A stretch of 64,000 bases of DNA from Kiritimatiellia bacterium (GCA_045589455.1 JAZNPC010000088.1:35587-99586), one strand, 5' to 3'; positions 2,216-53,248 are shown, numbered from the stretch's first letter. The notes: generated by a model not told the origin, from the letters alone. Made by a program: numbers and translations.

Positions 2216-3262
2216 TCACTTGAGCCTGAAATAGGTGGTATTTTTGCCGTTGCCCTCACGCACAAGCTCCCCCTCGGCAACGAGCTTCCGAAGTGCGCCT
2301 TCTACCGAGCTGATACTGAGGGACGGACAAAGCTCCATGACGTCCTGCTTCTTGAAGCGACCGACCTTATTCATCGTGGCGCGTCTCACCATTTCAAGAG
2401 AGGAAAGCTTGGTTTCCACAAGTGCAAAGCGGTCTTCAAAATCACGGTACGCGGAAAGGATTGTACCAAGCAGATATTTGATGAATGGTACGGTATCCGC
2501 TTCTCCCTCGTGCCAGCGTTGCTGCGACTGCCCCAGGGCATCGTAATACAGATCTTTGTTCTTTGCAATCTTGGCTTCCAAGGAGATATACTTCCCAACG
2601 TAGAATCCGTTTCGGTAAAGGAGGAGCATGGTGAGCAGACGGCTCATTCTGCCGTTGCCATCATTGAACGGATGGATGCAAAGAAAATCGTGTATAAAGG
2701 TAGGAATGGCAATGAGAGGCTCAAGCTCCATATTGCCGATCACACGGTTATATTCGTTACAAATGGCTTCAAGTGCCTCTGGTGTCTCAAAGGGGTCGAG
2801 AGGTGTAAACAGCGTTTCAGTATGTCCGTCGGGATAGGTTGCGCTGATATAATTCTGTACGCTCTTGGTTCTGCCCGCCACGGGATTGTTCATATGGCTG
2901 TAGAGGATCTTGTGAAGATGAAGGATATAGTTCGGTGTCAATGGGATGGCATCAAAGCTTTCGTGAATGATATTCAAAACGTCTCGGTACCCGGCAATCT
3001 CCTGCTCATCGCGGTTTCTCGGTGTGGTCTTCTCACCCATCAGCTGACGAATACGGGTGCTCGTGGTCACGATGCCCTCAATGGCGTTGGACGCTTCGGT
3101 GCTTTGTACCTTTGCAATCTCAACAAGCTTTTCAAGCTCATCAGGGCGTTGCTTCAAATATAATTCTTGTTTTCCGGCTTCCTTGTAAATTGCGGCAATC
3201 AAGCCGAGCAACTCGGAATCCCATTTGTTTTCACTGATTTTCGTGTAATTAAAGGTTCTCAT
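2216..3262 (-). CDS. fic: Fic family protein (AMPylation / Fido domain) with a C-terminal winged-helix domain
   Basis: Canonical HPFNDGNGRMSRLL Fic motif. The start was chosen at the internal ATG because it is preceded by GGAGGTGATAAAATG, a strong Shine-Dalgarno sequence. The ORF-track start at 3301 is probably too far upstream. Confidence 0.85.
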   Translation of the reverse strand: MRTFNYTKISENKWDSELLGLIAAIYKEAGKQELYLKQRPDELEKLVEIAKVQSTEASNAIEGIVTTSTRIRQLMGEKTTPRNRDEQEIAGYRDVLNIIHESFDAIPLTPNYILHLHKILYSHMNNPVAGRTKSVQNYISATYPDGHTETLFTPLDPFETPEALEAICNEYNRVIGNMELEPLIAIPTFIHDFLCIHPFNDGNGRMSRLLTMLLLYRNGFYVGKYISLEAKIAKNKDLYYDALGQSQQRWHEGEADTVPFIKYLLGTILSAYRDFEDRFALVETKLSSLEMVRRATMNKVGRFKKQDVMELCPSLSISSVEGALRKLVAEGELVREGNGKNTTYFRLK

Positions 3263-3279
3263 TTTATCACCTCCAAACA

Positions 3280-3425
3280 ATTCCCTTAAATTATAGCACA
3301 AATCAAGGGGATCGTCAACATCTCAAGGGAACATTCCCTTATTATTTTACTCAAATTAAGGGAATTTATTCATTATTGAGGGAATAATACGATAGTATCA
3401 TATTTTAGCGTTAAGGGGAATTCTC
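3280..3425. promoter_or_regulatory. Array of six or more TTAAGGG(G/A)AT-type motifs in the fic upstream region, including the palindrome gggaacattccc
   Basis: Copies are attcccttaaatt, caaggggat, tcaagggaacattccctta, aattaagggaattt, attgagggaat and gttaaggggaattc. Together with the downstream cluster, about 10 copies lie within 1.3 kb. Confidence 0.45.
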
Positions 3426-3584
3426 TACAAAGGACAATGGGGACAGAACAGACAAACGGCAAGGCTGCCCCTGCCGTCTGTGGTATAAGGTTGTTTATTG
3501 CCGTTCCAGTTCGGTGAAGACCTCAATGGCAATCCGCATCCCAAGCCGACACCGGTCGCTTCATAAGCCTGTTCTCAAGAATAG

Positions 3585-3715
3585 ATTTTTCAAAATGTAC
3601 ACACGCTGGTCCATTCTCGCTCTTACATGGTCTATTACTATTGTGTAAGAGCTCACAAAAACAACAATCGTAAAACTATTTTGCCCGCAAATTAAGTATG
3701 CGGGCAAAAAAATGG
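3585..3715. repeat. 131-bp direct repeat, copy 2; its last 3 nt overlap the CCA end of tRNA-Pro
   Basis: See copy 1. This copy carries the relic 3' end of an ORF, although no gene lies upstream of it. Confidence 0.85.
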
Positions 3716-3789
3716 TCGGAGAGGCGGGATTCGAACCCACGACAGCCAGTTCCCAAAACTGGTGCGCTACCAGACTGCGCTACTCTCCG
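3713..3789 (-). tRNA. tRNA-Pro (anticodon TGG)
   Basis: The reverse complement is CGGAGAGTAGCGCAGTCTGGTAGCGCACCAGTTTTGGGAACTGGCTGTCGTGGGTTCGAATCCCGCCTCTCCGACCA. It has a 7-bp acceptor stem, a TTTGGGA anticodon loop, a GTTCGAATC T-loop and an encoded CCA. Confidence 0.9.
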
Positions 3790-23582: not shown

Positions 23583-23878
23583 TTCCTCGCTCCTCGTCTC
23601 AAAAGTCTTGGTGGGTCGTACACATTAGCGCTTGGAAGTTGCATTATTGCTTCGTCAGATTTCGCAATAATAAAGGCAACAACAAGCGGTAATGTGCGCA
23701 TTCGCGCCCCAACACCACACCCATCACACAAGCCCAGCGCCCTCCGCGTCCTTCCTGACCTCCGTAGCCTTGGAGTAGGAGGTTGCGTCCCATCGGCGTC
23801 ACGCTAGCTCGGCGTTCTCTGCGTCTCTGCGTGAGGCGTGAGCCTGCCAATTATTTGTTGGCTGTTGTTTGTTGGCTG
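23583..23878. repeat. Family B structured repeat, copy 2
   Basis: Shares ...gtacacattagcgcttggaagttgcattattgcttcg.cagatttcgcaataat.aaggcaacaacaagcggtaatgtgcgcattcgcgcccc... with 49793-50045, and continues to the tandem ctctgcgt units. Confidence 0.8.
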
Positions 23879-23890
23879 TTGTATCCTTAA

Positions 23891-26600: not shown

Positions 26601-26885
26601 ATTTCAATCAAATAAAGCTGTTTACTAAATGATACACATTGATATTTCAATATTTGATTTTACCACAAAATTTATTGCATTTCACTATCATAGTTCAAAA
26701 GCCAATAGTGTAAAATATTGTCTGTAAATTCAATCTATACTATGTAGAATTATATATTTTTCCACATAAATGCCCCCTGCAAGGTGGATTATTTTGTCGC
26801 CACTTTATGGCATTATAAAACAACAATAGATGATATGGTGCAACTACTAATTCTTGAAGGGGGAAAGAAGAACTATGCAAGCAAG

Positions 26886-27050
26886 AATAATCCCAGCACC
26901 CCTCCGTGTCTCCGAGCCTCCAGAAAACCACACTACGTGTGCTCCGTGTTTCGCCGAAGGCTAGATGCTCAAGGAGGCAAAGGTTAGCACCTTGCCACCT
27001 TTCGCCCCAGCAACACCGGGCGACAGAGCCACCCTCAAATGGGATAAAGC
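26886..27050. repeat. Family A partial unit fused to a family D hairpin element
   Basis: ...ccctccgtgtctccgagcctccagaaaaccacactacgtgtgctccgtgtttcgccgaaggct followed by ...ggcaaaggttagcaccttgccacct.tcgccccagcaacaccgggcgacagagccaccctcaaatgggataaagc. Confidence 0.8.
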
Positions 27051-27555
27051 CTTCTGGAGATTCCTCTAATTCGTCATCAGGATACTCCACTTTAAATGCA
27101 AATACATCACCATTCGCATCCTTAGCAAATGCATATTGACCTTTAGCTTATGCATCAACTCTGTCACATAACTCTACCCTTGCATTTTTATAAATGCGGA
27201 TATAACTCATTAGGGCTGGTGAAGAGCATATTTGATATCATATTGCACGCCAAATTCAATTTAAATCTGAGGAAAAACACCCCAACACCGACACATTAAA
27301 ATAAACCCTCTTATTCAGTTGTTCGTAATTGATTGCTGTATTGTTTTTCATCAATAATTAATTTATAATATCTATCAAACAAGTGAACCTACCATCAAAA
27401 ATTATTAAAATAGACCACCTAGTAATTTTATGAAAATAATAACTGCAATGGACTTCTTTAAAGAGTGCATGACTTCTGTTGATGTTAGTAATGCAGTAAA
27501 AACTGGTCCTATTGCAAAAACAGTCTCATTATCATAAAGGACATTTTGTTATACC

Positions 27556-29481
27556 ATGAGCATACATTTTACAAATATTCTTCCACCGATGGTGGGAAAA
27601 GCAGATTTCTTTGCCGAAGACGCTTTTTCATTAGCTACGGCTGATTTTGAATGCTTTAACGAAACCGCACTTGAGCTAACACTTGTTCCAGAGGGCTCTC
27701 CAGCATATAACAAGGCTGAGGTATTAGGAGAAATCTTTATAAAATATCAAGCTGCACTTAAAGCTCGCGGTCTACGTGCAGGCATTCTCATTCAAGCAAC
27801 ACTTGGCCATGGATGGACGCCCAATAGTCGCTCTTCTTTCCAAAAGCTTATTACTACTGAATTTAAAGAGCGCTACACTCATTGCCCTCTTGATAAAGCC
27901 TTTCAAAAATACATTTACGATGCTATCCATCATCTGACAAAACTTGAACCAGATTTTTTTATGCTGGATGATGATTTTAGGCTTTTTTCCGGCATTAACG
28001 GTTGCTTCTGCCCTCTTCACGTTGCCCGCATAAATGCAGAGCTTGGCACAAATTACACTGCTGATGAAATCCTAGAAAAAACAAAAACAGACAAAGCATT
28101 TTACGCAAGCTTTGTTGAGATTGAAACAACAACAATGATGGAGTTAGCAAAAATCATTCGTAAGGCGATTGATGATGTTAATCCATCTATTCCTTGCTTC
28201 TATTGTACCTGTGGGAACCCAGAGGACTTAAATGTTGCAGAGAACATTGCCGGAATTATAGCCGCAAATGGGCAGCCCCACACGATAAGAATTAACAATG
28301 GCAGGTATATGCGTAATAATCCAGCAGACTTTCCTAATTGGCTTTACTTTACCTGCCACCAACGCTATGCTCTCTCTCCTGACACTGAGGTAATGACTGA
28401 GGCGGACACATTCCCGCACAATCGTTATGCGACAGATGCTGCTTGTATGAACGCAAATATAACACTAGCCATGCTAAATGGCTTTGCGGGAGCAAAACTT
28501 TGGATTACACGCTTATATAATTTTGAACCCGATTCAGGCAAAGCTTATAGACAAATTCTAAAAGACAACATAGGTCTATACAAATTCATTTATGATGCAA
28601 AACCAAAATGGCTTGGCTTTAATTCTCCTATGCGTAGACCAAAGGAAACCTGCGTCAACTCAAAAGTAACAGCATGGGGTAAGGAGGTCTTTTCACATAT
28701 TGGCATTCCGTTTAGGTACGAGTATGCAGACTCGGGGCCAACAATGCTTTCTGGTGATGATGTAGCATTTCTAACGAGCGAGGAGTTAAAAAATATTTTA
28801 AGTGGCACTGTAATTCTAGATGGCTCAGCAGGTAAGGCTCTAGCAGAGCGTGGTTTTGCCGAGCATTTGGGGTACGCATCTATGGACCCATACCCAGAAA
28901 GAATTGCGGAGGAAGTATTTTTTGATTCAAATGGTAATAAACGCGTAATTGGTTGCTCAACCCGAACTCTCTCATTTACCACAATAGACCCAGAGGCAGA
29001 AGCTCTATCAATGCTAATGCTTCGCACTTGGTCTTTTTCAAAGGAATGTAAAGAACTTTGCCCAGGTGCATTGCTTTATAAAAATGCACTTGGTGGCACA
29101 GTCATTACCTTTGCTGCAACAATTGGAGAATACTCTGTCGACTCATTTGCCCTATTAAATGAAACAAGGAAGCTTCAGCTTTGTGAGCTTATTGAAAGAC
29201 TCGGAGAAACCACAATAAATCTTGTAGGAGATGCAAGAGTTATTTGTCAATATGGGCGCACAAAGAGCAACCAAAAAATCATGTATTTCTGCAACATTTC
29301 AAACGATGTTTTACCTAGCATTGAGCTTGCATCAAGGGTATTTGATGAAAGTTGTAATCTATTTAGAGTAATGCCTAATGGTGAGCTAATGCCATACGAA
29401 TTAGAAAAGAGCGATACACATTTCCGTATTAACACACAGCTCAACCCATTGGAAACAGCTGTTTTCATAATAAAGAATTGA
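27556..29481 (+). CDS. Hypothetical protein (641 aa)
   Basis: Long uninterrupted ORF. No family assignment can be made from the sequence. Confidence 0.55.
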   Translation: MSIHFTNILPPMVGKADFFAEDAFSLATADFECFNETALELTLVPEGSPAYNKAEVLGEIFIKYQAALKARGLRAGILIQATLGHGWTPNSRSSFQKLITTEFKERYTHCPLDKAFQKYIYDAIHHLTKLEPDFFMLDDDFRLFSGINGCFCPLHVARINAELGTNYTADEILEKTKTDKAFYASFVEIETTTMMELAKIIRKAIDDVNPSIPCFYCTCGNPEDLNVAENIAGIIAANGQPHTIRINNGRYMRNNPADFPNWLYFTCHQRYALSPDTEVMTEADTFPHNRYATDAACMNANITLAMLNGFAGAKLWITRLYNFEPDSGKAYRQILKDNIGLYKFIYDAKPKWLGFNSPMRRPKETCVNSKVTAWGKEVFSHIGIPFRYEYADSGPTMLSGDDVAFLTSEELKNILSGTVILDGSAGKALAERGFAEHLGYASMDPYPERIAEEVFFDSNGNKRVIGCSTRTLSFTTIDPEAEALSMLMLRTWSFSKECKELCPGALLYKNALGGTVITFAATIGEYSVDSFALLNETRKLQLCELIERLGETTINLVGDARVICQYGRTKSNQKIMYFCNISNDVLPSIELASRVFDESCNLFRVMPNGELMPYELEKSDTHFRINTQLNPLETAVFIIKN

Positions 29482-29549
29482 TTATACATAACACTATCAT
29501 CTTAGACTATGGTGCTTTTATAAGAGTGTCATATAAAAATTTTAAGGAT

Positions 29550-29612
29550 TCCTTGACAACATAAATGCAACACCAAACACACAATGGCGTTGCAATTACT
29601 TTGTCTTTTAAC
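29550..29612. repeat. Family E repeat, copy 1 (hairpin element)
   Basis: gacaacataaatgcaacaccaaac...gttgcaattactttgtctttta.acc matches 32447-32507. It contains the inverted arms aaatgcaac / gttgcaatt. Confidence 0.7.
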
Positions 29613-29649
29613 CCTTCCCATTCTCCTAATCTCCTAATCTCCCAATTAG

Positions 29650-30236
29650 CGCCACAGGCTTGAGCGGGAGCGTTTAAATCCCTTTCGTTCATTGCTTACG
29701 CTTAACACGGAGTACGGAGGACAAAGGAGAATTGTATTAGCAATCTTTCCAGCACCCCAGAACCCTCCCCGTGTCTCCGTTCTCCAGAAAACCACACTAC
29801 GTGTGCTCCGCGTTTCGCCGAAGGCCTGAGCGGGAGCGTTTAAATCGTTTCACTCATTGCTTTCGCTCAACACGGAGCACGGAGGACAAAGGAGAATTGT
29901 GCTAATCGTTGCACTCGTTGCCTACGCCTAGGAAAGGAGGGGAAGTGCAAGCAACAATAATCCTAGAACACTCTCCGTGTCTCCGTTCTCTTAATCCTCC
30001 GTGTTTCGCCGAAGGCTCAAGCGGGAGCGTTTAAATCACTTTCGTTCATTGCTTACGCTCAACACGGAGTACGGAGGACAAAGGAGAGTTGTGCTAGCAA
30101 CCATTATAATACCCCCAACAAACTCTCCGTGCCTCCGTTCTCTTTTATCTTCGCGTTTCGCCGAAGGCTCAAGCGAGAGCGATTAAATCATTTCACTTGT
30201 TGCTTACGCTTAACACGGAGGCTGGGGAGAACGGAG
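29650..30236. repeat. Family A structured repeat, tandem array of 4 degenerate units (152-191 bp period)
   Basis: Core starts (cgtgtttcgccgaagg) fall at about 29645 (truncated), 29812, 30003 and 30155. Each unit ends ...aacacggag.acggaggacaaaggagaattgtgcta.caa. Confidence 0.85.
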
Positions 30237-30291
30237 ACGCGGAGAGGTTTGGGAAGATATTGGAGAAAGGGGCTACAGCCCTTTGCGTGCT

Positions 30292-30344
30292 GACAATATG
30301 ACAGTTTGACAATATGACAGTTTGACAATATGACAGTTTGACAG
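30292..30344. repeat. Tandem repeat (gacaatatgacagttt) x3.3
   Basis: Perfect 16-bp units. A related 9-bp repeat (gacagtatg) lies at 30466-30500, and aactgtcaaactttccaa occurs twice at 30372-30425. Confidence 0.9.
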
Positions 30345-30504
30345 AGCAGATGAGGGTGGCTTTGCCGCCCTAGACCCCCAACTGTCAAACTTTCCAACTC
30401 GCCCACTCGCAAACTGTCAAACTTTCCAAGCCTCAACACCTAAACAGTTCCATTTTTTTATAGTTTGACAGTATGATAGTATGACAGTATGACAGTTTGA
30501 GAGA

Positions 30505-30578
30505 GAAGATGAAGGTGGCTCTGCCACCTCTCGCCCCAGCAACACCGGGCGACAAAGCCACCCTCAAATGGGATAAAG
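30505..30578. repeat. Family D hairpin element, directly 3' of the PEP-CTERM gene
   Basis: ggtggctctgccacctctcgccccagcaacaccgggcgacaaagccaccctcaaatgggataaagc. On the minus-strand transcript it folds into a 12-bp stem (with G-U pairs) and a ~20-nt loop. Confidence 0.75.
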
Positions 30579-30583
30579 CTTAC

Positions 30584-31237
30584 TTACTTTCTGCGTTTTA
30601 TCAATAATGCTGCACCAGCAAGAGCAAGCAACGCGGAACTTGGTTCAGGAACAACACCAACGGTTATTGGATCGCCATCAAGATTTATTGCTGAATTAAG
30701 CATAGTAACACCGTCTGTTGTGAATTGCATATGAAGCCACCCGTAAACATCTCTATACCAGAAAGGTTCATCAACACTATTACTAAAACCTGCCTCGTAA
30801 ACAAATCCCAAATAGAAATCATCACCAACGTTACCTGTTATGCTGTATCCTGGATATGCACTCCCATCTGCAGTAGTAAGATATTCAAGGAAATATTCAT
30901 CTTGATTTTTAGTCGTTGCCGCTGAAACAATATCTCCCTCATTAAGTTGGACGAAATTACAAGCATGCGCAAGCAGTTGTTCACTGGAAGCAGAAATTGT
31001 TCGCTTATTCCCATATTTTGGAATTTCTACTTCGATATACGCCGCTGGAGCGACACAAATTGAATAATACCCCGCATAGTTATATAAATCATCAAACCTA
31101 GTCTTTGGTAAAATTTGATAGTTATCAATTAAATAGTGGTGATCAATTATAGTCATATAATCCCATAATACTGTTGAAGCAAAAGTATACGAGCAAATTA
31201 GTGACAACAAAATTATTATTGAGCTTTTAATTTTCAT
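30584..31237 (-). CDS. PEP-CTERM sorting-domain protein (secreted/cell-surface, exosortase substrate)
   Basis: N-terminal signal peptide, and a C-terminus ...VVPEPSSALLALAGAALLIKRRK made up of a PEP motif, a hydrophobic helix and a basic cluster. Confidence 0.8.
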   Translation of the reverse strand: MKIKSSIIILLSLICSYTFASTVLWDYMTIIDHHYLIDNYQILPKTRFDDLYNYAGYYSICVAPAAYIEVEIPKYGNKRTISASSEQLLAHACNFVQLNEGDIVSAATTKNQDEYFLEYLTTADGSAYPGYSITGNVGDDFYLGFVYEAGFSNSVDEPFWYRDVYGWLHMQFTTDGVTMLNSAINLDGDPITVGVVPEPSSALLALAGAALLIKRRK

Positions 31238-31565
31238 TTACGTATCTCACTAAAACCAGCTTCCGCAACCAAATCTGTTAAGTCTTGCATTAAATCATTA
31301 ATTGTTATTGAAAAACACGTTCTAATCTATGAACAGCAACGTTTTCTTCATATCATAATCCTTTTTGATACTTCTCAATTTAAGATTAACAAAATATGTT
31401 ATTCTATTCAACTATTATTGTTGGTGTGAAACTGTAATTTGCAAAAGTAAATGCACCTCTTTTGGTGCATTTAGTCACACAATGGTGTATTTAGTTTTGC
31501 AATCTACAAAAAGTCACTTTTCCACACCCTTTCTCCCTCTAGCAGCAAATCTTTTTTGTTCGACG

Positions 31566-31685
31566 CTTCCGCCTAACACGGAGACGCAGAGGCGCGGAGA
31601 ATTGTGCAAGCAATCATTACAACTACCCCAGAACCTCTCCGTGTCTCCTTACCTCTTTATCCTCCGTGTTTCGCCGAAGGCAAGA
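31566..31685. repeat. Family A structured repeat, single unit
   Basis: gcctaacacggagacgcagaggcgcggagaattgtgcaagcaatcattacaactaccccagaacctctccgtgtctcc...cctccgtgtttcgccgaagg. Confidence 0.8.
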
Positions 31686-31810
31686 GCACTAGCGACCATC
31701 AGTTCTCTGCGTTCCTTTTTCGCACTTTTGAAGCGTGCTGGTGCACGCAAAGCGACTGGAAGTCGCTTCTCCATACTTTTCTAGCCCACGAATGTGATGC
31801 ACTATAATAA

Positions 31811-31852
31811 ATGAAGAATGAAGAATGAAAAATGAAGAATGAAAAATGAAGA
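31811..31852. repeat. Heptanucleotide microsatellite (ATGAAGA/ATGAAAA) x6
   Basis: atgaaga atgaaga atgaaaa atgaaga atgaaaa atgaaga. Confidence 0.9.
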
Positions 31853-31884
31853 GTTAAGGTAGAGTTGAGTGGTTTTTCTCCATT

Positions 31885-32055
31885 CTCGCGTCTAATTGTC
31901 TTTTAGTCTCTTGTCCTTGTCTCATGTCTCATGTCTCGCGTCTCATGTCCCATGTCCAAATGGGCGTGTCAACGCCTGCGGGATGCGTGTCAACGCATTG
32001 GATGGTCTCGCGTCTAATTGTCTAATCGTCCGTTCGCCGTCTAACGTCTAATTGT
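31885..32055. repeat. Family C repeat, copy 1; includes the heptamer run (GTCTCAT-like) x7 at 31910-31957 and two gcgtgtcaacgc motifs
   Basis: gtcttttagtctcttgtccttgtctcatgtctcatgtctcgcgtctcatgtcccatgtccaaatgggcgtgtcaacgcctgcggg...tctcgcgtctaattgtctaatcg. Copy 2 is the reverse complement at 49625-49745. Confidence 0.8.
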
Positions 32056-32194
32056 CTATCGGTTGTCTCACGTCTAACGTCGTTTAACCGTCTCGCGTCT
32101 AACGTCTAACCTCGCGTCTAGCCGCCACACAATCCTCTGCGCCTCTGCGTCTCTGCGGGAAATAACAATATCCGTATAAATATAACATGTTCAA

Positions 32195-32345
32195 GCCTCC
32201 TAATCTCCAAAACTCCGGAAAGACACACTACGTGTGCTCCCAGAAGCGAAAGCAACCTTTCAATAGAGATTAAGTCGTTGGGTTTAAAGTTACTTTCGTT
32301 GCTTGAAGATTTGGAGATTAGGAGACACGGAGAGTACTGGTGGTA
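32195..32345. repeat. Divergent family A-like element bounded by 13-bp inverted repeats (cctaatctccaaa / tttggagattagg)
   Basis: Contains cacactacgtgtgctcc and gagacacggagagt, both shared with family A. The inverted repeats sit at 32203-32215 and 32300-32312. Confidence 0.6.
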
Positions 32346-32446
32346 TGGAGAAGCGATATCCTGTCGCTTTGCGTGCACTGGAACGCCTATCCCTGCGACG
32401 TGTACACGATTTTTTTGTCTAGTGGGTTATATTTGAATGGTCACTG

Positions 32447-32507
32447 GACAAAGTAAATGCAACACCAAACTTTAGAGGTAGTTGCATTTAGTTTGTCTTT
32501 TCACCTT
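32447..32507. repeat. Family E repeat, copy 2
   Basis: gacaaagtaaatgcaacaccaaac...agttgcatttagtttgtcttttcacc, in the same orientation as copy 1. The two E copies bracket the 2.9-kb repeat region. Confidence 0.7.
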
Positions 32508-32602
32508 TATTTTTTAACTGCCGAATTTAGGTTGACTGGTAGCAGTGTTTTGTATTAAAATTAAATCGTCACAAGTACGTTTATATATACGAAAGGAATA
32601 AA

Positions 32603-33451
32603 ATGAAAAAGTTATTGATTTTTATTACTACAACAGTGCTATTGGGTAGTTTAAATGCAATGCAAAATGGTGTTACCCCAATAGAAACGAATTCCAATAT
32701 AGAAGAAATTAAAGATAATAATGAAACCCGTTTAGAGGCATATACAAATGCTAGAAAATATTATTATCAAATTCAGACACACAATCCACCAGAATGCGTA
32801 GATTATTCTACAGAAGGAGTATGCTCTTTGCCAAATACAGACATAAATGGTTTTCCCAATAAAGGTCACGTAAATACAATCCTAAACTATAAATTCCCCA
32901 AAAACATTGCGAACTACACCGCTAAGCACATAGTTGTGTACAACACTGAAGATCTTGGATATAGCATTAAATATGAAAACGCAGAATCAGATGTCATAAT
33001 TGACATATATATTTATGGACCCTCTACGGCAACAGAAATTGATGAAGCATTTTTAAAAGAGCACACAGAACAAATTGCACGAGATGTTAAAACGGTCTCT
33101 CCTAATGCTGTTTTTGAAAAAAACTATATAATTGAAAGCTTTAAAAATGATGCCAACATAAAATACTATGGTTTTTTTGCAAGCATATATCCGAGCAGGT
33201 TTGATATAGAAAATAAAAAGAGAAATATTGAAACTTTTGCATTATTGTTTTCAAAAAATGGGAAAATAATCAAATTCCGTATAACACAGAAAAATTCAGA
33301 AAAGGAATCATTCAAAAAACTTGTTAATGAATTTATAGAAACATTTGATAACGAGGTAATTCTTGATTCAAAAACACGAAAAGAAAAATTTGAACCAACA
33401 ATAGTCTACCCTATCATTGACGAAGTTTATAGCCAAGATTATCATCCATAA
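32603..33451 (+). CDS. Hypothetical secreted protein (282 aa) with a signal peptide
   Basis: MKKLLIFITTTVLLGSLNA signal peptide. The protein is Asn/Lys/Glu-rich and matches no recognised family. Confidence 0.5.
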   Translation: MKKLLIFITTTVLLGSLNAMQNGVTPIETNSNIEEIKDNNETRLEAYTNARKYYYQIQTHNPPECVDYSTEGVCSLPNTDINGFPNKGHVNTILNYKFPKNIANYTAKHIVVYNTEDLGYSIKYENAESDVIIDIYIYGPSTATEIDEAFLKEHTEQIARDVKTVSPNAVFEKNYIIESFKNDANIKYYGFFASIYPSRFDIENKKRNIETFALLFSKNGKIIKFRITQKNSEKESFKKLVNEFIETFDNEVILDSKTRKEKFEPTIVYPIIDEVYSQDYHP

Positions 33452-35676: not shown

Positions 35677-35729
35677 AATTTAATTCCTTTATAGTTTGGG
35701 GTTATTTTTGGGGGTATATATAAAATGTT

Positions 35730-37316
35730 TTATGCTTCCACTGGAGATTCTTCTGCGGCTGGTGCTTCTGCTTCTACAGGAGCATCCGGTGCCTCTTCAA
35801 CTACTGGGGATTCCTCAACAGCTGGTGCCTCTTCTACAGCTGGTGCTTCTTCCGCCACAGGTGCTTTTGCTGGAGCATCTGCAGTAAGGGTTAGCTTATC
35901 CTTTGTAGGAGTTTGAAGCTTGCGATATTTTGGATGTGGCTCAGGCAATGCTAGAACCTCATTATGATACTCAATAACATGACCACGCTCTGTTACCCAA
36001 TTTAGTTGAGAAATAATCTTCTTTGCATCCTCTGCTGATGTACCTTCTGGTACAAGTGCAGCTATTAGCTCACTACGTGTGCAGCAAGGATTTTGTGTAA
36101 TATAATCAATTACTGCCTTTAGTTCTGGCACCGCATGAGTGACGTCAAGAACCTGTGGCTGCTTGCGAACTACAAATTCATCCTTGTGCTCAGAAGCAAT
36201 CTTAAAGATAACGAGCTTACGGCTCTTCAAGCCACCACGTACTGCAAAGAATAGTGTTCCAAGATGATTATGGCGTTCCTTATCCCATGCATGCAATACA
36301 CCGCGTGGCATAAAGCCGTGTGGTAATGCACGGATTACTGGTAGAGAAGCAATCACATAGCGGTTTCTATTTAGATTGCGAGCAACTACCTCGTCCATAA
36401 AATATTTGTCAGCTTCCTCAAAGGTCATCTGAGCACGAGCTACGAGCTCTTCTGCAGTTGCCTTTGCATCAAGCTTTAGAAGATAACGCATTTGCTTACT
36501 TGCCTGCTGCTTCCACTCATCTACAGCTGCTGGATCACGCACTAATTCAATCTCTGCACGGAACTGCTCTTCTGTAACCTCTGGGCATTCTGTCTCGCGC
36601 ATCTTACGAACTGCTGCATTGTAGCTATGGTGATTTGGAGGAGCAATTAGCTTTCCTGTTAGCTTTGAGCGAGCAACAGAAGGGAAATTTCCTGTTGGAG
36701 GCTCAACATCAATTTCAATTGACTCAAAGCACTCTTCAAAATGAGCCTGCTTAATGTGAGCAATTGTTTCCTGTTCATCACATGAGAACCAACCGCACTT
36801 CTTACACTGATAGAAACGCTTATCCTTATGCTCTTCCTTAAATTCTAGGCGAGCAAGCACAGCATTTTGATTTTCAATAAATAGCTTTACAATGCTCTTA
36901 AGAGGCATTGCCTTGTGGTTGCTGTGAATCTTACGAGTAATTACTGTAAGAGCATTTGCCTCTGGCAAGAAACGAATCTCAAAAGGAAGCTCTCTAGGCT
37001 CACGAGGAGGACGATTCTTAAAGTCATGCTTTTCAAACCTTCTATCCTTGCGTGGTTGGGCATTATCAGAGGAGTCACTACCCTCTTTATTTGCCTTATT
37101 AAAATCACGCTTTTGAAAATCTGGCTTGTCTCCGCGAGGACGCTTATCACCACGGAATTTTTTATCGTTACGATCACCATAGGATGCCTGCTTTTCAGCA
37201 TACTTAGAAATATCTGATAAGTGCTGATCAGGGGATGTTTTTGCCCATGATGTTGACATTGAAAAACCATCTAGAAGAGCATCTAGATTGTTTTGTTGTT
37301 TATCGCTATCGCTCAT
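35730..37316 (-). CDS. Hypothetical protein (528 aa) with a C2H2-like zinc knuckle and disordered basic N-terminus / acidic AEP-repeat C-terminus
   Basis: YQCKKCGWFSCDEQETIAHIKQAH, an N-terminal K/R/D-rich low-complexity stretch and C-terminal (A/P)VEE(A/S)P repeats. It lies 53 bp upstream of fucI, is co-directional with it, and is probably in the same operon. Confidence 0.55.
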   Translation of the reverse strand: MSDSDKQQNNLDALLDGFSMSTSWAKTSPDQHLSDISKYAEKQASYGDRNDKKFRGDKRPRGDKPDFQKRDFNKANKEGSDSSDNAQPRKDRRFEKHDFKNRPPREPRELPFEIRFLPEANALTVITRKIHSNHKAMPLKSIVKLFIENQNAVLARLEFKEEHKDKRFYQCKKCGWFSCDEQETIAHIKQAHFEECFESIEIDVEPPTGNFPSVARSKLTGKLIAPPNHHSYNAAVRKMRETECPEVTEEQFRAEIELVRDPAAVDEWKQQASKQMRYLLKLDAKATAEELVARAQMTFEEADKYFMDEVVARNLNRNRYVIASLPVIRALPHGFMPRGVLHAWDKERHNHLGTLFFAVRGGLKSRKLVIFKIASEHKDEFVVRKQPQVLDVTHAVPELKAVIDYITQNPCCTRSELIAALVPEGTSAEDAKKIISQLNWVTERGHVIEYHNEVLALPEPHPKYRKLQTPTKDKLTLTADAPAKAPVAEEAPAVEEAPAVEESPVVEEAPDAPVEAEAPAAEESPVEA

Positions 37317-42586: not shown

Positions 42587-43248
42587 CCCCTCTCTTTCAG
42601 AATAATCGCAGCTTTTTTTATTTTTTGCATCAAGTTCTGATTTCCTTGTTTAGCAAGTTCACGATAGACATCGCGTAACAAGGAAAGCACCTCTTCCGTT
42701 TGCTGTGCTCGGTATGATTTGCGAGCTTGGTACATTCGTTCCCGGATGCCTCCTTTTTCTGTGAAACTTTTTTCCAGTGACTTGATTTGACGGTCAAGCA
42801 AATAATTGGTCTGGTGAATCAGGGAAATCATCGTATTGCAGAAAAGCTCAGGATTATCAGCAGAAAAATAAGACTTATAGGTCTCATAAGTCCTATTCTT
42901 TTGTCTTGCAAGCTGGCGGATTTGCAAAGCCCGTGGGTCATCTTTTTCCCACAAAGGCAAATTGTGCGTCCGCAAATAATCGCGGTAGTCTTCCAATAAT
43001 TCTTCAAGACTGGCTCTGGCAACACCAACAAGCTTAATTTCTGTTCCGCTACTGATACCTGATGCCATGCTTCCTTCGATTATATTTTGCTTACCGCTTC
43101 TTGCCGCCTGTATCATTTGATCAATTGTCCGATCACCTTTTCTAAGAAAATTTTGACAAAAACTCTGCGTCGCATCAAAAATAATGACACTATTTTGATA
43201 CGATTCAAGTTCCTGATAATTTCCGTGTGGCAAGACAATTTCTGCCAT
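42583..43248 (-). CDS. Four-helix-bundle (23S rRNA intervening-sequence protein family) domain protein with a C-terminal extension
   Basis: ...QMIQAARSGKQNIIEGSMASG...VGVARASLEELLEDY... fits the Q..RSA.SI..NIAEG...IARGS..EL signature. Confidence 0.45.
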   Translation of the reverse strand: MAEIVLPHGNYQELESYQNSVIIFDATQSFCQNFLRKGDRTIDQMIQAARSGKQNIIEGSMASGISSGTEIKLVGVARASLEELLEDYRDYLRTHNLPLWEKDDPRALQIRQLARQKNRTYETYKSYFSADNPELFCNTMISLIHQTNYLLDRQIKSLEKSFTEKGGIRERMYQARKSYRAQQTEEVLSLLRDVYRELAKQGNQNLMQKIKKAAIILKERG

Positions 43249-43289: not shown

Positions 43290-43500
43290 TTCATTTCCCT
43301 CACTCATTTTCAGAGGTCCCTTCCTTTCAGAAAATTCGCATCTTCAGAAAGATAAGACTTATAGGTCTCATAAGTCCTATTCTTTTGTCTTGCAAGCTGG
43401 CGGATTTGCAAAGCCCGTGGGTCTTCTTTTTCCCACAAAGGCAAATTGTGCGTCCGCAAATAATCACGGTAGTCTTCCAATAATTCTTCTAGACAAAGAG
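43290..43500 (-). pseudogene. Internally deleted duplicate of the preceding four-helix-bundle gene
   Basis: 43345-43495 is ~97% identical to 42867-43030, and 43290-43340 resembles 42575-42620. It corresponds to ORF-track ORF 43310..43525. Confidence 0.7.
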
Positions 43501-43549: not shown

Positions 43550-46549
43550 TTACGCTTCTACTGATGGCTCAGCGGCTGGTGCTTCTGCTGCAGGTGGCTC
43601 AGCTGTGGCAGGGTCTGAAGTAGGTGCTTGCTCAGCGGCGGCACCATTCTTTTCCTCTGCAAGTGCCTTTTGAAGGCGCTCCATTTCTTGAGCTGTTTCC
43701 GCAGAGATAATTGTACCAGAAGATACTGCATCTTCCTTATCCACGCGGACAACTCTTACACCCATTGTGTTACGGTTGCTGATTGAAACATTGCGTACAT
43801 ATGTCATCAGTGATGTGCCACCACGTGTCATCAATAGAACTGCTGCACCCTTAGCTGCTGATTGCTCTTCCGACTCAACGCCTTCTGCTGTGGCAGGGTC
43901 TGCACCCTCTACTGGCTGCTCTGGCTCATCCTGTGGCAAGCACTCAACTAGCGCAGCAAATACAACCTTACCATTACGTGCTGTGGTCTTGATATCGATA
44001 ACACCCTTACCACCACGATTCTTTGTTGGGTAGCTTGCAACTGGTGTGCGCTTTCCATAACCATTATCTACGATTGTTACTAGATATAGATTATCCTCTG
44101 AGCCTGCTGGAACCTTAACCATTGTGCGGAGCTCATCAACAATTAGCTTGCCATTTTCATCAAGCTCAACTGCACTCTCCTCCTCTTCTCCAGCAGCAGG
44201 TGCATCATCTGGATCAGGGTCCTTGAAGGTAACTCCGTCAAGGCGAATACCACGTACACCATGTGCTGTGCGTCCCATTTTGCGGGCTGCTGTTGCGGCA
44301 AACTTAATGCACTTACCATTTGCTGAAATAAGCATAATCTTATCATTATCTTCAACAAGTGTTACTGCTATTAGCTCATCATCCTCATCAATAGAGATAG
44401 CATTTATGCCGGAGCTACGAACATTCTTGTACTCGCTCAATAATGTACGCTTAACAACGCCCTTCTTTGTTGCAAAGAATACATATTGTTTATCCAGCTG
44501 CTCTTGCTCATCCTTTTCAAAGCTCTTCACTGCGATAATATCAAGCACGCGCTCTGCTGGGCGATATGGTAGCTCCTTGCCATCCTTATCCTTTGTGCCT
44601 TCTAGGCGCTCAGGACGCAGATCAATGAAGTTCTGAACTGGCTTACCCATTGTGTTGCAATCGCTCTCTTGTAGCTCATAAGCACCCTTTTGGAATAGGC
44701 GACCATGTGAGGTAAAGAACAATAGCTCATCGTGTGCCATGCAGTTATAAACATTTAGGATATAATCCTCAGGTGCTTTGTCCGCGCCCTTACGTAGCTT
44801 TGCACCAGTCTTACCTGTTCCACCGCGATTCTGAATTCTAAAGTCAGCAAGTGGTGTACGCTTAATGTAACCAAGCTTACTAATTGAAATTACAGATGGG
44901 ATATTTGGTACATAGTCCTTAACAGCAAAGCCGCTTCCTACATTGCTATTCTTGTCAATTTTTGTAAGACGAGCATCGCCATCCTTTGAAGATTTTGCAA
45001 ACTTTGCTTTCATCTCCTCACAGTCGTTCTTAATAATATCAAGAACCTTCTGTGGATCAGCAAGAATATCCTTTAGCTCTTGGATACGAACTAGAAGCTT
45101 CTGATATTCATCCTCGACACGCTCACGAGCCAAGCCAGTAAGCTGACGAAGCTTCATTTCAAGAATTGAATTAGACTGTATTTCATCTAAACCAAAGCGC
45201 TCAAAGAATATCTTGCGGACCTCTGCATCATCATGAGAAGCACGGATAATGCGAACAATCTCATCCATATTATCGATTGCAATACGATAGCCCTCAAGAA
45301 TGTGAGCGCGCTCTTGTGCCTTACGTAGCTCATATTTGCAGCGGCGTGTGATAACCTCCTTGCGGTGCTCCACAAAGCAATGAAGTAGCTGCTTAAGATT
45401 CATCACCTTTGGACGGCCATGATCTAGAGCAAGCATAATTGCGCTAAAGCTTGATTGAAGAGGTGTTCTGCTGTAGAAGAAATTCATAATTGCTTCTGGC
45501 ACAGCATCACTCTTTAGCTCAATTTCAATGCGAATATCCTCGCGTGAAACATCGCGAATTTCCTTTACGCCTTCAAGAACCTTGTTTTCCTTATCACGTG
45601 CAAGCTCGCCCATCTTTTCAACCATGAGAGCTTTATTTACACCATAAGGAACGCTATCGATAACAATAATCTTATCGCCTGAGGTCTGCTTACCCTTCTT
45701 CTTTTCCTCAATCGTATAATTACCACGGATGTACATTGTTCCGCGGCCCTTCTTATACATATCAATAATCCCCTTTACACCACAAATTGTTCCGCGGGTT
45801 GGGAAGTCTGGGCCCTGGATATGCTGCATCAAATCATCAATTGTGCAGAATGGATGATCGATTAGAAGCTTAATAGCATCGCATACCTCAGTAAGGTTAT
45901 GTGTTGGGATATTTGTAGACATACCAACTGCGATACCCATTGAACCATTCAATAGAAGGTTTGGTAGCTTTGAAGGAAGTACCGTTGGTTCCTCGAGTGT
46001 TTCATCGTAGTTAGGAACCATATCAACGGTTTCCTTATCGATATCCTCAAGCATCTCTTCTGCGTATTCACGCATGCGAACCTCGGTGTAACGCATAGCT
46101 GCAGCGCCATCACCATCGATAGAACCAAAGTTGCCATGTCCATCAACTAGCATATAACGCATGGAGAAATCCTGCGCCATACGAACGATTGTCTCGTAAA
46201 TTGCGCTATCACCATGAGGGTGATACTTACCCATAACATCACCGACAATACGAGCAGCCTTACGGTGTGGCTTGTCATGATAGTTACCTGTCTCACCCAT
46301 TGAATAAATACATCTACGATGCACTGGCTTCATACCATCACGTGCATCTGGCAATGCACGGCCAACGATAACTGACATTGAGTAGTCGATGTAAGCATTT
46401 TTCATCTCCTCCTCAATTTTGATATCGTTTAAGCCTGGCTCAAAAGAAGCAGCCACACCATCATCTGCAGTATCCTGAGACACCTCAAGATTCGCCTCCT
46501 CAAGAGCCGCATCTACAATCTTATTCTCTTCGTTAATCTCGTTATCCAT
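43550..46549 (-). CDS. gyrA: DNA gyrase subunit A, with ~45-aa N-terminal and Ala/Glu/Pro-rich C-terminal extensions
   Basis: ...YSMSVIVGRALPDARDGMKPVHRR... active-site region and C-terminal beta-pinwheel repeats. Total length 999 aa. Confidence 0.95.
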   Translation of the reverse strand: MDNEINEENKIVDAALEEANLEVSQDTADDGVAASFEPGLNDIKIEEEMKNAYIDYSMSVIVGRALPDARDGMKPVHRRCIYSMGETGNYHDKPHRKAARIVGDVMGKYHPHGDSAIYETIVRMAQDFSMRYMLVDGHGNFGSIDGDGAAAMRYTEVRMREYAEEMLEDIDKETVDMVPNYDETLEEPTVLPSKLPNLLLNGSMGIAVGMSTNIPTHNLTEVCDAIKLLIDHPFCTIDDLMQHIQGPDFPTRGTICGVKGIIDMYKKGRGTMYIRGNYTIEEKKKGKQTSGDKIIVIDSVPYGVNKALMVEKMGELARDKENKVLEGVKEIRDVSREDIRIEIELKSDAVPEAIMNFFYSRTPLQSSFSAIMLALDHGRPKVMNLKQLLHCFVEHRKEVITRRCKYELRKAQERAHILEGYRIAIDNMDEIVRIIRASHDDAEVRKIFFERFGLDEIQSNSILEMKLRQLTGLARERVEDEYQKLLVRIQELKDILADPQKVLDIIKNDCEEMKAKFAKSSKDGDARLTKIDKNSNVGSGFAVKDYVPNIPSVISISKLGYIKRTPLADFRIQNRGGTGKTGAKLRKGADKAPEDYILNVYNCMAHDELLFFTSHGRLFQKGAYELQESDCNTMGKPVQNFIDLRPERLEGTKDKDGKELPYRPAERVLDIIAVKSFEKDEQEQLDKQYVFFATKKGVVKRTLLSEYKNVRSSGINAISIDEDDELIAVTLVEDNDKIMLISANGKCIKFAATAARKMGRTAHGVRGIRLDGVTFKDPDPDDAPAAGEEEESAVELDENGKLIVDELRTMVKVPAGSEDNLYLVTIVDNGYGKRTPVASYPTKNRGGKGVIDIKTTARNGKVVFAALVECLPQDEPEQPVEGADPATAEGVESEEQSAAKGAAVLLMTRGGTSLMTYVRNVSISNRNTMGVRVVRVDKEDAVSSGTIISAETAQEMERLQKALAEEKNGAAAEQAPTSDPATAEPPAAEAPAAEPSVEA

Positions 46550-49624: not shown

Positions 49625-49745
49625 ACGTAAAAGGGACGATTAGACGTTAGACTCCGCGACCTGCAGGCGTTGACACGCCCCTTTGGACATGAGACATGAG
49701 ACGTGGGACACGAGACAAGGTCGTGAGACCAAAAGACATTTAGAC
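49625..49745. repeat. Family C repeat, copy 2 (inverted relative to copy 1 at 31885-32055)
   Basis: Its reverse complement reads gtcttttggtctcacgaccttgtctcgtgtcccacgtctcatgtctcatgtccaaaggggcgtgtcaacgcctgcaggtcgcggagtctaacgtctaatcg. Confidence 0.8.
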
Positions 49746-49792
49746 GTTAAGAACCAATTGTTGGTTGTTGGATCGTTTCCCATCACGCTTCC

Positions 49793-50045
49793 TTGCTCAA
49801 TAGCCTTGGTGGGTCGTACACATTAGCGCTTGGCAGTTGCATTATTGCTTCGCCAGATTTCGCAATAATTAAGGCAACAACAAGCGGTAATGTGCGCATT
49901 CGCGCCCCAACACCATACCCATCACACCAGCTCCGTGCCCTCCGCGTCCACTGCGTCTCTGCGTCCCTACGGCGTCACGTGCACCACGCTCGCTCTGCGT
50001 CTCTGCGTCTCTGCGTGGGGGTGAGCCGCCAGTTGTCTGTTGATT
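49793..50045. repeat. Family B structured repeat, copy 3
   Basis: Roughly 90% identical to copy 2 over the first ~150 bp, and ends in (ctctgcgt) x3. Confidence 0.8.
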
Positions 50046-51433: not shown

Positions 51434-51493
51434 CGCACCTAAGATGTATAAAATACCTCTTAGGTGCATGAAGCGAAGCACAGCTTCATTTTC
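51434..51493 (+). terminator. Two consecutive hairpins after the M16 peptidase gene; the second is followed by a T-run (rho-independent terminator)
   Basis: gcacctaag...cttaggtgc (9-bp stem) and then atgaagc-gaagcaca-gcttcat followed by tttct. A near-identical hairpin (tgaagcgaagcatagcttcatttt) sits at 52140-52165 next to the hydE stop. Confidence 0.55.
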
Positions 51494-51957
51494 TCCGTGC
51501 CTCCGTTCTCAGAAAAATCACACTACGTGTGCTCCGTGTTTCGCCGAAGGCTCAAGCGTCAGCGACAATCAGTGTGCGTGCTAACAAGCCATTTTATAAG
51601 ACTTATAAGTCCTATGAGTCTTATTAAAATATTGCGTAGCAATGCTTCATATTGCGTGGCACCTCTCCGTGTCTCCGTTTTCTTTATTCTCCGCGTTTCG
51701 CCGAAGGCTAAAGCGTCAGCGTTTCAATCGTTGCACTCATTGCTTTCGCTTAACACGGAGTACGGAGGACAAAGGAGAATTGTACTAGCAATTATTAACA
51801 ATAACCCCAGCATCCCTCCGCGTCTCCGTTCTCTGAAAAATCACACTACGTGTGCTCCGTGTTTCGCCGAAGGCTTGGAGTGCTCAAGGAGGCAAAGGGT
51901 TGCCACCTTGCCACCTCTCGCCCCAGCAACACCGGGCGGCAGAGCCACCCTCAAATT
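51492..51957. repeat. Family A structured repeats (about 2.5 units with a ~110-bp unrelated insert) fused to a family D hairpin element
   Basis: ctccgtgcctccgttctcagaaaaatcacactacgtgtgctccgtgtttcgccgaaggctcaagcg... occurs twice, followed by ...ggcaaagggttgccaccttgccacctctcgccccagcaacaccgggcggcagagccaccctcaaat. Confidence 0.8.
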
Positions 51958-52171
51958 AACTTTTTAACTGACAAACTATCAAACTATAAAACTGTAAAAC
52001 TATATAACTAAACAAGAATTAAATTAGTTTGCAAGTTGGCGAGTATGCGAGTATGCGAGTTTGATAGTTGGATTTTGAGGCGGCAGAGCCACCTTCTGGG
52101 AGGATGGAGCGCTCATAAATGAACATGAGAACATGAAGCAGCACATTCGTGCTATGAAGCGAAGCATAGCT

Positions 52172-53248
52172 TCATTTTGCGTGTGGAGAATCGCCTAATT
52201 CATTTAAGCGGAGAGTTTCACCGATGCTTTTAACTGAAGCTTCAAGGGCAGCCATTGTTTCTTCAGCATTTTCATCTAGATTTGGCTTATTTGCGTATAA
52301 TTGATAACCAGCACGATAACCAACTGCTGTTGCATTTGGCATAATTACATTGGCTCCTGCAAGTAAGCCACGCTCACGCCCATCTGGAGCAAGAGCTTGA
52401 AGTGCTGTGGTAGATGCTATATTTACATCGTGTAAATATAAACGCGTGACAGCAATCATCTTTAGTCCTAAAAGTAGCTGTTGCTCCATATATTCCGATG
52501 TTACGGGAATATTTTCACCTAAAGGTGTATCTGGATGAGGTATATATGGTCCCATTCCTATCATATCCGCATCCACTTCTGCAAAAAATTCAATATCATG
52601 AGCGAGATCAAGTAGCGACTGCTCTGGCAATCCAATCATAACACCTGTACCAAGCTGATAACCAAGCTTTTTTAATGTGTGTAAGCACTCTACGCGACGC
52701 TCAAAAGAATGCCCTAGAGGATGAAGCTTTTCATAAAGCTTTGGGTTACTAGATTCTATCCGAAGGAGGTATCTATGCGCCCCCGCATCACGCCATTGTT
52801 TATAGACACTCTCCTCCTGCTCTCCAAGCGATAATGTCACGCCTAAACCATTACCCCAACGAGACTTAATCTCAGCAAGTACATCTGCTATGAAGGCAGA
52901 GTTTGCGGAACTTTCTAGCTCACCACCTTGAAGAACAAGCGACCCATAACCGGCAGAAAAAATAAACCCCGCTGTAGCTAATATCTCATCCTTTGTAAGG
53001 CTAAATCGTTCAATATTTTTGTTACCTGAACGAATTCCACAATAGTAGCAATTCTTTTTACAGATATTGCTCCACTCAATTAAGCCTCGAACACTAACCC
53101 GTCGCCCAATATAGCGCTCTTTGGCGCTATAAGCAGCCTTAAACAGCTTTTCCATCTCCTTATTAGTGGATATACTGAGTAGCTCAACTAACTCGTCACA
53201 AGTGAGATTACGAGGTTTTTCAAGGGCTTTATTGAGTAATTCAACCAT
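52172..53248 (-). CDS. hydE: [FeFe]-hydrogenase maturase HydE (biotin-synthase-like radical SAM)
   Basis: CKKNCYYCGIR cluster motif and a ~350-aa length. The order of conserved blocks matches HydE. Confidence 0.75.
   Translation of the reverse strand: MVELLNKALEKPRNLTCDELVELLSISTNKEMEKLFKAAYSAKERYIGRRVSVRGLIEWSNICKKNCYYCGIRSGNKNIERFSLTKDEILATAGFIFSAGYGSLVLQGGELESSANSAFIADVLAEIKSRWGNGLGVTLSLGEQEESVYKQWRDAGAHRYLLRIESSNPKLYEKLHPLGHSFERRVECLHTLKKLGYQLGTGVMIGLPEQSLLDLAHDIEFFAEVDADMIGMGPYIPHPDTPLGENIPVTSEYMEQQLLLGLKMIAVTRLYLHDVNIASTTALQALAPDGRERGLLAGANVIMPNATAVGYRAGYQLYANKPNLDENAEETMAALEASVKSIGETLRLNELGDSPHAK

Follow-up and report, generated by a model that had tools for sequence, protein, structure and literature searches.

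Repetitive extragenic palindromic (REP) sequences and bacterial interspersed mosaic elements (BIMEs) of enterobacteria and pseudomonads are high-copy, intergenic hairpin units that lie in mosaic clusters, often at gene 3' ends, and vary in composition between strains. BOX of Streptococcus pneumoniae, Correia, RUP, ERIC and STAR are modular repeats resembling miniature inverted-repeat transposable elements (MITEs). Functionally and in their architecture these are the closest systems to a locus that we analysed in a stretch of 64,000 nucleotides (the window) from a Kiritimatiellia bacterium, a ruminant-gut member of the Kiritimatiellae group. The locus is the 3121-bp gap between a gene for a 641-aa protein (27556–29481, plus strand) and one for a 282-aa protein (32603–33451, plus strand), whose single credible gene is a 217-aa PEP-CTERM open reading frame (ORF); the remaining ORFs lie in or across repeats. 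We think it likely that dispersed mosaic repeat modules gather and recombine in this gap, making it a hotspot of BIME-, BOX- or MITE-like character. The repeat families, here called A, C, D, E and H, appear to be undescribed, and we found no relevant literature on repeats in Kiritimatiellae.

As in REP/BIME clusters, palindromic units occur here at high copy in intergenic DNA, with 11 A-core matches in the 64 kb, 27 copies in four metagenome-assembled genomes (MAGs) and E hairpins with z from -3.3 to -6.0. The A core, however, is longer, with 72 nt, or about 150 nt including its arms, compared to 20–40 nt for REP, its arms are tandem 7–8-bp sub-repeats, and no REP-associated tyrosine transposase (RAYT, IS200/IS605-like Y1 transposase) was found among the window ORFs scanned. 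BIMEs are described as having units in alternating orientation (PMC2817692), whereas the A units of our locus run head-to-tail, all on the same strand. The modules share with BOX and MITE-like repeats a modular build with a variable number of sub-units, a length of 100–200 bp, a non-coding, intergenic nature and in some cases terminal inverted repeats (32197–32324); terminal inverted repeats together with a small non-coding size, as in MITEs, were found at 32197–32335, and the A unit at 29960–30100 forms a long hairpin. Neither a target-site duplication nor a clean single-element insertion polymorphism was seen. The modules differ from BOX and MITE-like repeats in that several unrelated module families are intermixed and that the identity of the repeats across species is above that of coding DNA. 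Integron attC cassettes differ as well, with no integrase found here and A units that form arrays free of ORFs and are dispersed over both strands throughout the genome.

For a comparison between strains we used metagenome contigs that carry a 99% identical 641-aa protein and the same neighbours (L-numbers are labels of comparison loci and contigs); in a JGI (Joint Genome Institute) scan, the 641-aa protein retrieved just relatives of ~35% identity, which were of no use for this purpose. The gap exists in three alleles of 3121 bp (window), 1354/1363 bp and 1001 bp between flanking genes that are 97–99% identical (98.9% and 97.2% for the window and L080), and the window allele alone carries the PEP-CTERM gene. 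In allele 1 (L001 with 1354 bp, L002 and the identical L003 with 1363 bp) the homology extends to 29784 and restarts at 32345, and a different 792-bp mosaic, the modules of which are found elsewhere in the window, replaces window positions 29785–32344. Between L001 and L002/L003, a GACGCAGAG-type tract differs by a single 9-bp unit, and there are four substitutions. Allele 3 (L080–L083 and L085–L088) has the same sequence in eight independent assemblies and is built of E1, four A units, H' and E2; its junction reads AACACGGAG-TACGGAG-AGTACTGG with breakpoints at 30220/32332 and homology restarting at about 32327. The sole clean indel is flanked by the direct repeat ACACGGAG at 30213–30220 and 32325–32332, itself part of a repeat, while the strain differences are mostly complex replacements. 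The breakpoints between alleles sit within A-type arms, and the array content varies too, L001 having one full and two partial A cores and L080 four units. An apparent further allele in L084, 100 bp longer, was rejected, its additional length being a run of N, that is a scaffold gap and no extra unit.

Such alleles would result from recombination or slippage between short identical motifs like ACACGGAG, with segments being deleted, inserted or replaced; unequal exchange in the A arrays may contribute, and the PEP-CTERM module could have been gained or lost in recombination events of this kind. A second strain-variable cluster is located 2 kb upstream in the gap between the gene for an MFS transporter and the 641-aa gene (window 26770–27146). 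As this MFS/641 gap is equally variable, variability is a feature of the repeat clusters rather than of the PEP-CTERM gene. The hypervariability proposed in the original prediction, made from the window sequence, holds as structural variation in three alleles, but not as a property special to the PEP-CTERM gene.

The same prediction had considered the entire segment from one E copy to the other as a composite mobile cassette with the E repeats as its ends. Direct E copies at both sides and a gene content between them that varies by strain would fit, but we regard this as refuted. Every allele without the PEP-CTERM gene keeps E1 and E2 at 92–99% identity, the breakpoints of alleles 1 and 3 are internal to the segment, and E-type hairpins form a dispersed family present at other loci and in other species. 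Moreover, neither a recombinase gene (gap and neighbouring ORFs scanned) nor a target duplication was found, and the window ORFs scanned contained no transposase or integrase domains. E1 and E2 form a 78-nt direct repeat of 74% identity, each copy folding as a hairpin with a T-rich tail on the plus strand, and E1 is found at 98.7% identity in L001–L005 and L080–L088. Being present in all alleles, they are fixed anchors rather than cassette ends, whereas the whole sequence enclosed by them varies among the near-identical strains. We infer that they are terminator or insulator hairpins of the flanking transcription units, a role that would account for their constancy; the D hairpins probably act in this way on their neighbouring transcription units, too. 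Gap length and gene presence do vary between strains while the E-to-E segment does not behave as a unit, and what survives of the predicted cassette is a recurring gene module within it.

That the gap is a gathering place of dispersed modules is also seen from its composition. Repeats elsewhere match 2027 of its 3121 bp, or ~89% if the gene module is left aside; the parts without a match are this module (30580–31427), the gene-proximal ends and four stretches of 10–38 bp. Twelve of the 46 Tandem Repeats Finder rows of the 64-kb window fall into these 3.1 kb. The same families recur within the window at 450–710, 23600–23880, 26900–27055, 49660–50020 and 51490–52180, and A, C, D, E and the short tracts are common to at least 3–4 related ruminant-gut MAG species, none of them being locus-specific. 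Elsewhere in the window we also observed a 154-nt dispersed repeat of 94% identity (23598–23751 and 49796–49949), which belongs to further clusters by tRNA-Ser/Leu genes and upstream of a peptidase M16 gene; together, such repeat clusters make up about 8–9% of the window.

One of these modules is the A unit. Its 72-nt core, derived from aligned copies, reads CTCCGTGTTTCGCCGAAGGC..AGCG..AGCGTTTAAATCGTTTCACT..TTGCTT.CGC.TAACACGGAG and is flanked by a left arm of CTCCGTGT-type octamers and a right arm of ACGGAG-type repeats, the first arm of the array being a variant with three copies of TCTCCTAA. Successive units are parted by a linker, and small CACAC...GTGTG hairpins are optional. In the window, 5 exact pattern matches and 11 profile matches were obtained at 5 separate intergenic sites, and a pattern scan of the GTDB species genomes yielded 32 stretches, of which 27 were true copies from four MAG species of the ruminant gut (CALDQE01 17, Kiritimatiellae RGIG4692 10, RGIG9845 1 and RGIG990 1), on both strands and often close to contig ends. 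The core profile gave no match in 73 kb and 18 kb from two species with a 73–74% identical 641-aa protein, nor in 196 kb of distant relatives, and the pattern was absent from the viral contigs scanned. A cores are intergenic, with just 2 matches within ORFs of at least 150 aa (29 sequences examined). All 11 window matches lie on the plus strand, an orientation bias that turned out to be a local accident, since GC skew (19 concordant, 11 discordant) and gene strand (16 opposite, 14 same) were mixed over 29 sequences.

Across 39 distinct copies ~55 of the 72 core columns are near-invariant and the variation is limited to about ten hot columns. The mean identity is 0.87–0.89 between species and 0.86–0.89 within a genome, values that are inflated because 22 of the 72 positions had been set in the search pattern; the single stretch of orthologous coding DNA available for the window and CALDQE01 shows 74.5% identity. 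As the cores are equally similar between and within species although coding DNA is only ~75% identical, this comparison indicates that either the repeat sequence is under selection or copies were recently exchanged between species. The repeats might accordingly be functional and under selection as protein-binding arrays, terminators or insulators, or small RNAs, which would make the cluster a regulatory or structural architecture and not passive mobile DNA. We see this as a minor possibility: besides the conserved core, E and D hairpins are found where genes end and shortly before promoter-like sites. On the other hand, compensatory base-pair changes are lacking, with none in 29 A cores and one pair in 9 E copies, and the mutual information in the A core is confined to adjacent columns, giving no evidence for a structured RNA in A or E. 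The A-core fold is modest, the whole unit at 29960–30100 being stronger as a long imperfect hairpin (z -4.7), and no Rfam family was matched: at gathering score the window gave tRNAs alone, and at E≤1 just generic long-hairpin miRNA matches far under threshold. Copy number and order at this one locus also vary freely by strain, arguing against a locus-specific need. Rather speculatively, and with somewhat less confidence still, A, D and related modules may be active foldback-type non-autonomous mobile elements, with arms of 7–8-bp sub-repeats and a conserved core. Horizontal transfer between co-resident gut Kiritimatiellae species would have spread them, or selection would maintain them for a role in the chromosome, and via their many short homologies they would capture accessory modules such as the PEP-CTERM unit and shuttle them between loci.

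The gene itself belongs to a module of its own. Its product shows the C-terminal PEP motif, hydrophobic helix, basic cluster and N-terminal signal-like segment expected for the PEP-CTERM/exosortase sorting system, reportedly described by Haft et al. in 2006. The C-terminus VPEPSSALLALAGAALLIKRRK can be divided into VPEPSS-ALLALAGAALLI-KRRK, and in 13 homologues the PEP motif is invariant. The Pfam score for PF07589 was marginally below the cut-off (20.0 versus 20.7 bits), one homologue being pre-annotated with this family, and the ~170-aa domain between signal-like and C-terminal helices, predicted to be all-beta (pLDDT 72), has no family match and no structural match in the PDB at E≤0.001. 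No exosortase was found among the window ORFs scanned. Exact-protein look-ups of the 641-aa and the 217-aa window proteins gave no match, and a protein identical to the PEP-CTERM protein (P0151) is recorded on a 106-kb NCBI contig; a JGI metagenome scan with it returned nothing, and it was absent from the viral contigs scanned.

Close homologues (86–97% amino acid identity) are mostly found on ~0.9-kb contigs that end in the flanking repeats. A small ORF precedes the gene and overlaps its start codon (ATGA); elsewhere it encodes 43–60 aa (43 aa in L078, intact in L079), whereas in the window it is broken. Together they form a module of ~0.82–0.94 kb that recurs at 90–96% identity in two further gene contexts. 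In L078 the stretch 30496–31432 is present at 95% identity after a 1360-aa ResIII/Eco57I-like gene, with an E-like hairpin upstream, at the position of E3, and a D hairpin downstream. In L079, 30573–31394 follows a 752-aa AAA ATPase gene at 96% identity with a different terminator and a frameshifted gene; L015 shares this context, having the same 3' flank. Occurring in these other contexts, the gene is movable or multi-copy, and the comparison shows an accessory module made of PEP-CTERM gene, small ORF, promoter-like site and terminator-like hairpin. We also observed that residues 27–68 and 177–182 of the PEP-CTERM protein are mosaic between alleles (for instance DNYQ…TRFDD/GNYK…TEYDN, AAYI/AADV, VTMLNS/VEMLYS and a 6-aa indel), the rest being near-invariant, which suggests inter-allele recombination or diversifying selection on one face.

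Simple-sequence-repeat contingency loci are known from surface genes of Haemophilus, Neisseria and Campylobacter. Short tracts near a surface-protein gene that differ in length between copies are reminiscent of them, and a phase-variable locus had indeed been proposed. Slippage in the 7-, 8- and 16-bp tracts would then toggle the PEP-CTERM gene. The gap is dense in tandem tracts, the gene product is of a surface type, and tract length does change in evolution, as seen from the 9-bp unit separating L001 from L002/L003 and from a heptamer and a 25-bp block in the C copies. Nevertheless, the tracts are part of dispersed elements outside the ORF and core promoter. Neither the ORF, nor the small upstream ORF, nor the ~200 bp to the promoter-like site contains one, and Tandem Repeats Finder gave no array between 30501 and 31809, which spans ORF and promoter-like site. 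The closest tract, (ATGAAGA)n, lies ~570 bp upstream of the start codon, past the E3 hairpin and an A unit, and the same tracts occur in dispersed modules beside unrelated genes. Furthermore, the five gene-module alleles (L013, L014, L078, L079 and window) differ by single-nucleotide polymorphisms and non-repeat indels only, the latter causing the disruptions, without a switch-like change of tract length. With no tract in the gene or its promoter-proximal 200 bp, phase variation is unsupported and in our opinion very unlikely, and we infer that the short tandem tracts belong to the structure of the repeat modules and do not act as gene switches.

Another explanation would be an assembly artefact, in which repeats led to chimeric joins or to a collapse in the window allele or in the short ones. 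Every breakpoint does lie in repeats and many repeat-bearing contigs end in them, but we consider an artefact improbable, as the 1001-bp allele recurs unchanged in its eight assemblies and the 1354/1363-bp allele was recovered in three, while repeat copies of 80–90% identity are too divergent for a collapse at k=141. The links between E-like hairpin, gene, D hairpin and octamers are independently confirmed by L078, L013 and L014, and the identical PEP-CTERM protein on the 106-kb contig is in line with this. Several points nonetheless weigh against a recombination hotspot as the full explanation. The comparison alleles come from short-read metagenome assemblies, and the window joins the fourth A unit to the octamers and the A-like element to H' within repeats, without independent contig support. 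The alleles differ by more than one event, their order is not polarisable because the outgroup species differ in synteny, and the recombination proposed above is read from the junction sequences only. L078 and L079 are either other strains or paralogous copies, and the strong position-specific conservation of the A core across species suggests that the repeats may have a function.

The anatomy of the locus is collected in Table 1, and every element listed in the original prediction was found at or near its predicted position. Regarding the real genes, it was also right about the 217-aa PEP-CTERM protein being the only ORF, to which the broken small ORF can be added, and about the four tandem A units, the partial fifth core having gone unmentioned.

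Table 1: Features of the gap between the 641-aa and 282-aa genes (positions in the window).
Feature	Position	Strand	Description
E1	29539–29616	+	Dispersed-family hairpin followed by TTTT, just past the stop of the 641-aa gene; z -3.25; constant left anchor
A array	29617–30250	+	Head-to-tail; 72-nt cores at 29650–29712, 29806–29877, 29997–30069 and 30149–30220, partial core at 29887–29930
Window-specific segment	30221–32332		2112 bp, lacking in the 1001-bp allele; flanked by the 8-bp ACACGGAG
Octamer arrays	30291–30503		TGACAnTn and inverse AACTGTCA, orientation alternating around the GC hairpin 30353–30371
D module	30513–30584	-	Nested GC hairpin directly 3' of the PEP-CTERM stop; terminator-like site 30530–30512
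PEP-CTERM gene	30584–31237	-	217 aa; N-terminal signal-like helix, ~170-aa all-beta domain, VPEPS, hydrophobic helix and KRRK
Small-ORF remnant	31234–31351	-	Signal-peptide-like; cut by a 14-nt deletion in the window
Promoter-like site	31401–31430	-	Sigma-70-like TTCACA-18-TAGAAT, 10/12, by consensus match alone; small-ORF/PEP-CTERM unit
E3	31439–31502		Double hairpin resembling E, closely upstream of the PEP-CTERM promoter-like site; z -5.06; 83% to L031 286–361
Fifth A unit (variant)	31547–31703	+	Core is the left half alone (31662–31695)
H module	31733–31776		Double hairpin; z -4.79; copies in L001, L030, L036 and L037
Heptamer tract	31810–31852	+	(ATGAAGA/ATGAAAA) x6.1; shorter copy in another species (L025)
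C block	31884–32110	+	(GTCTCAT) x7.4 at 31906–31956, two GCGTGTCAACGC hairpins at 31963–31998, CGTCTAA-rich 32011–32110
(CCTCTGCG) x3 tract	32128–32157	+	Dispersed motif
A-like element	32197–32335	+	18-nt terminal inverted repeats 32197–32214 / 32307–32324, 94% complementary
H' module	32343–32386		Inverted partner of H (86% complementary); homology with other alleles restarts here
E2	32431–32508	+	Hairpin and T-rich tail, ~25 nt upstream of the promoter-like site (32532–32561) of the 282-aa gene; z -6.0; constant right anchor

Among the tandem tracts, the predicted heptamers and threefold 16-bp repeat are present, the latter as a tract of 3.3 units with 100% match at 30291–30343 that is a compound of TGACAnTn octamers, but the supposed 9-bp tract has a period of 8 (AGTATGAC x4.9 at 30462–30500). 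An exact 18-bp direct repeat occupies 30380–30397 and 30412–30429, and relatives of the octamer arrays are located at 51887–52180 of the window and in L016, L023 and L032. D hairpins are found at 30353–30371 and 30513–30566; the D module also follows other genes, with 94% identity to 26993–27055 and 76% to 51909–51971, and L013 and L014 have a short version. One heptamer and a 25-bp indel distinguish the paralogues of the C block (window 49660–49746; L001 6875–7065, 91%). The A-like element (z -3.55, 84% to L017) carries CTCCTAAT-type octamers in its ends.

The nearest named relatives of the 641-aa protein are hypothetical proteins from MAGs of Kiritimatiellae, Victivallales and Lentisphaeria, and neighbouring genes are those for sugar use, encoding a GHL10-like protein, the MFS transporter and L-fucose isomerase. 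As gyrB, tRNAs and further housekeeping genes are also in the window, it represents ordinary chromosome. The MFS/641 gap measures ~280–380 bp in the window, ~725 bp in L080 (5011–5735) and ~1394 bp in L001 (6321–7714, including a 144-aa ORF). Within it, a short ORF fragment on the minus strand (27056–27146, …AKGQYAFAKDANGDVFAFKVEYPDDELEESPEG) runs directly into a D hairpin copy. A 148-bp AT-rich insertion just upstream of the 641-aa start (27382–27529), lacking in L001–L005 and L080, holds a 35-aa ORF (27432–27539, MKIITAMDFFKECMTSVDVSNAVKTGPIAKTVSLS) and is not a GC-rich repeat module. A 46-nt AT-rich promoter-like stretch (ATTCTACATAGTATAGATTGAATTTACAGACAATATTTTACACTAT), 94–96% identical at window 26705–26750, L078 1–46 and L043 4736–4781, precedes three unrelated genes, namely that of the MFS transporter, a 379-aa ORF (L078) and a 210-aa ORF (L043, another species). 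This match had looked like evidence for the L078 island being in the neighbouring gap, a placement that we rejected because the presence of the 46 nt in L043 before an unrelated ORF makes them a shared module that cannot position L078.

Repeats of other kinds were observed further away. The 3' end of a 528-aa gene (35730–37316, minus strand) contains an 18-bp coding tandem repeat (35709–35857, GGTGCCTCTTCAACAGCT x3.6) that remains unaligned with the orthologues of 514 aa in L001 and 509 aa in L080, and is thus a length-variable coding repeat. A 175-nt direct repeat of 86% identity (1932–2106 and 3541–3715) encloses a gene with a Fic domain (2216–3301), and the second copy abuts tRNA-Pro (3713–3789); this pair could mark a small integrated element. 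Another direct repeat of 155 nt and 96% identity (42856–43010 and 43340–43494) is found near a 221-aa ORF with a weak match to the 23S rRNA-intervening-sequence protein, just downstream of a 999-aa ORF (43550–46549) that adjoins gyrB.

In summary, the kind of feature found here is an ordinary one, a hotspot of mosaic repeats between two genes that also holds an accessory gene, in a lineage of which little is known, and no new genetic system. For this uncultured ruminant-gut lineage the repeats do, however, have consequences, as they break short-read assemblies, many contigs ending there, and leave accessory surface-protein genes hidden on contigs of less than a kilobase. The conservation of the A core across species is the one point of wider interest. 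The three alleles give an example of dispersed mosaic repeats producing strain-level structural variation and repositioning a PEP-CTERM gene.

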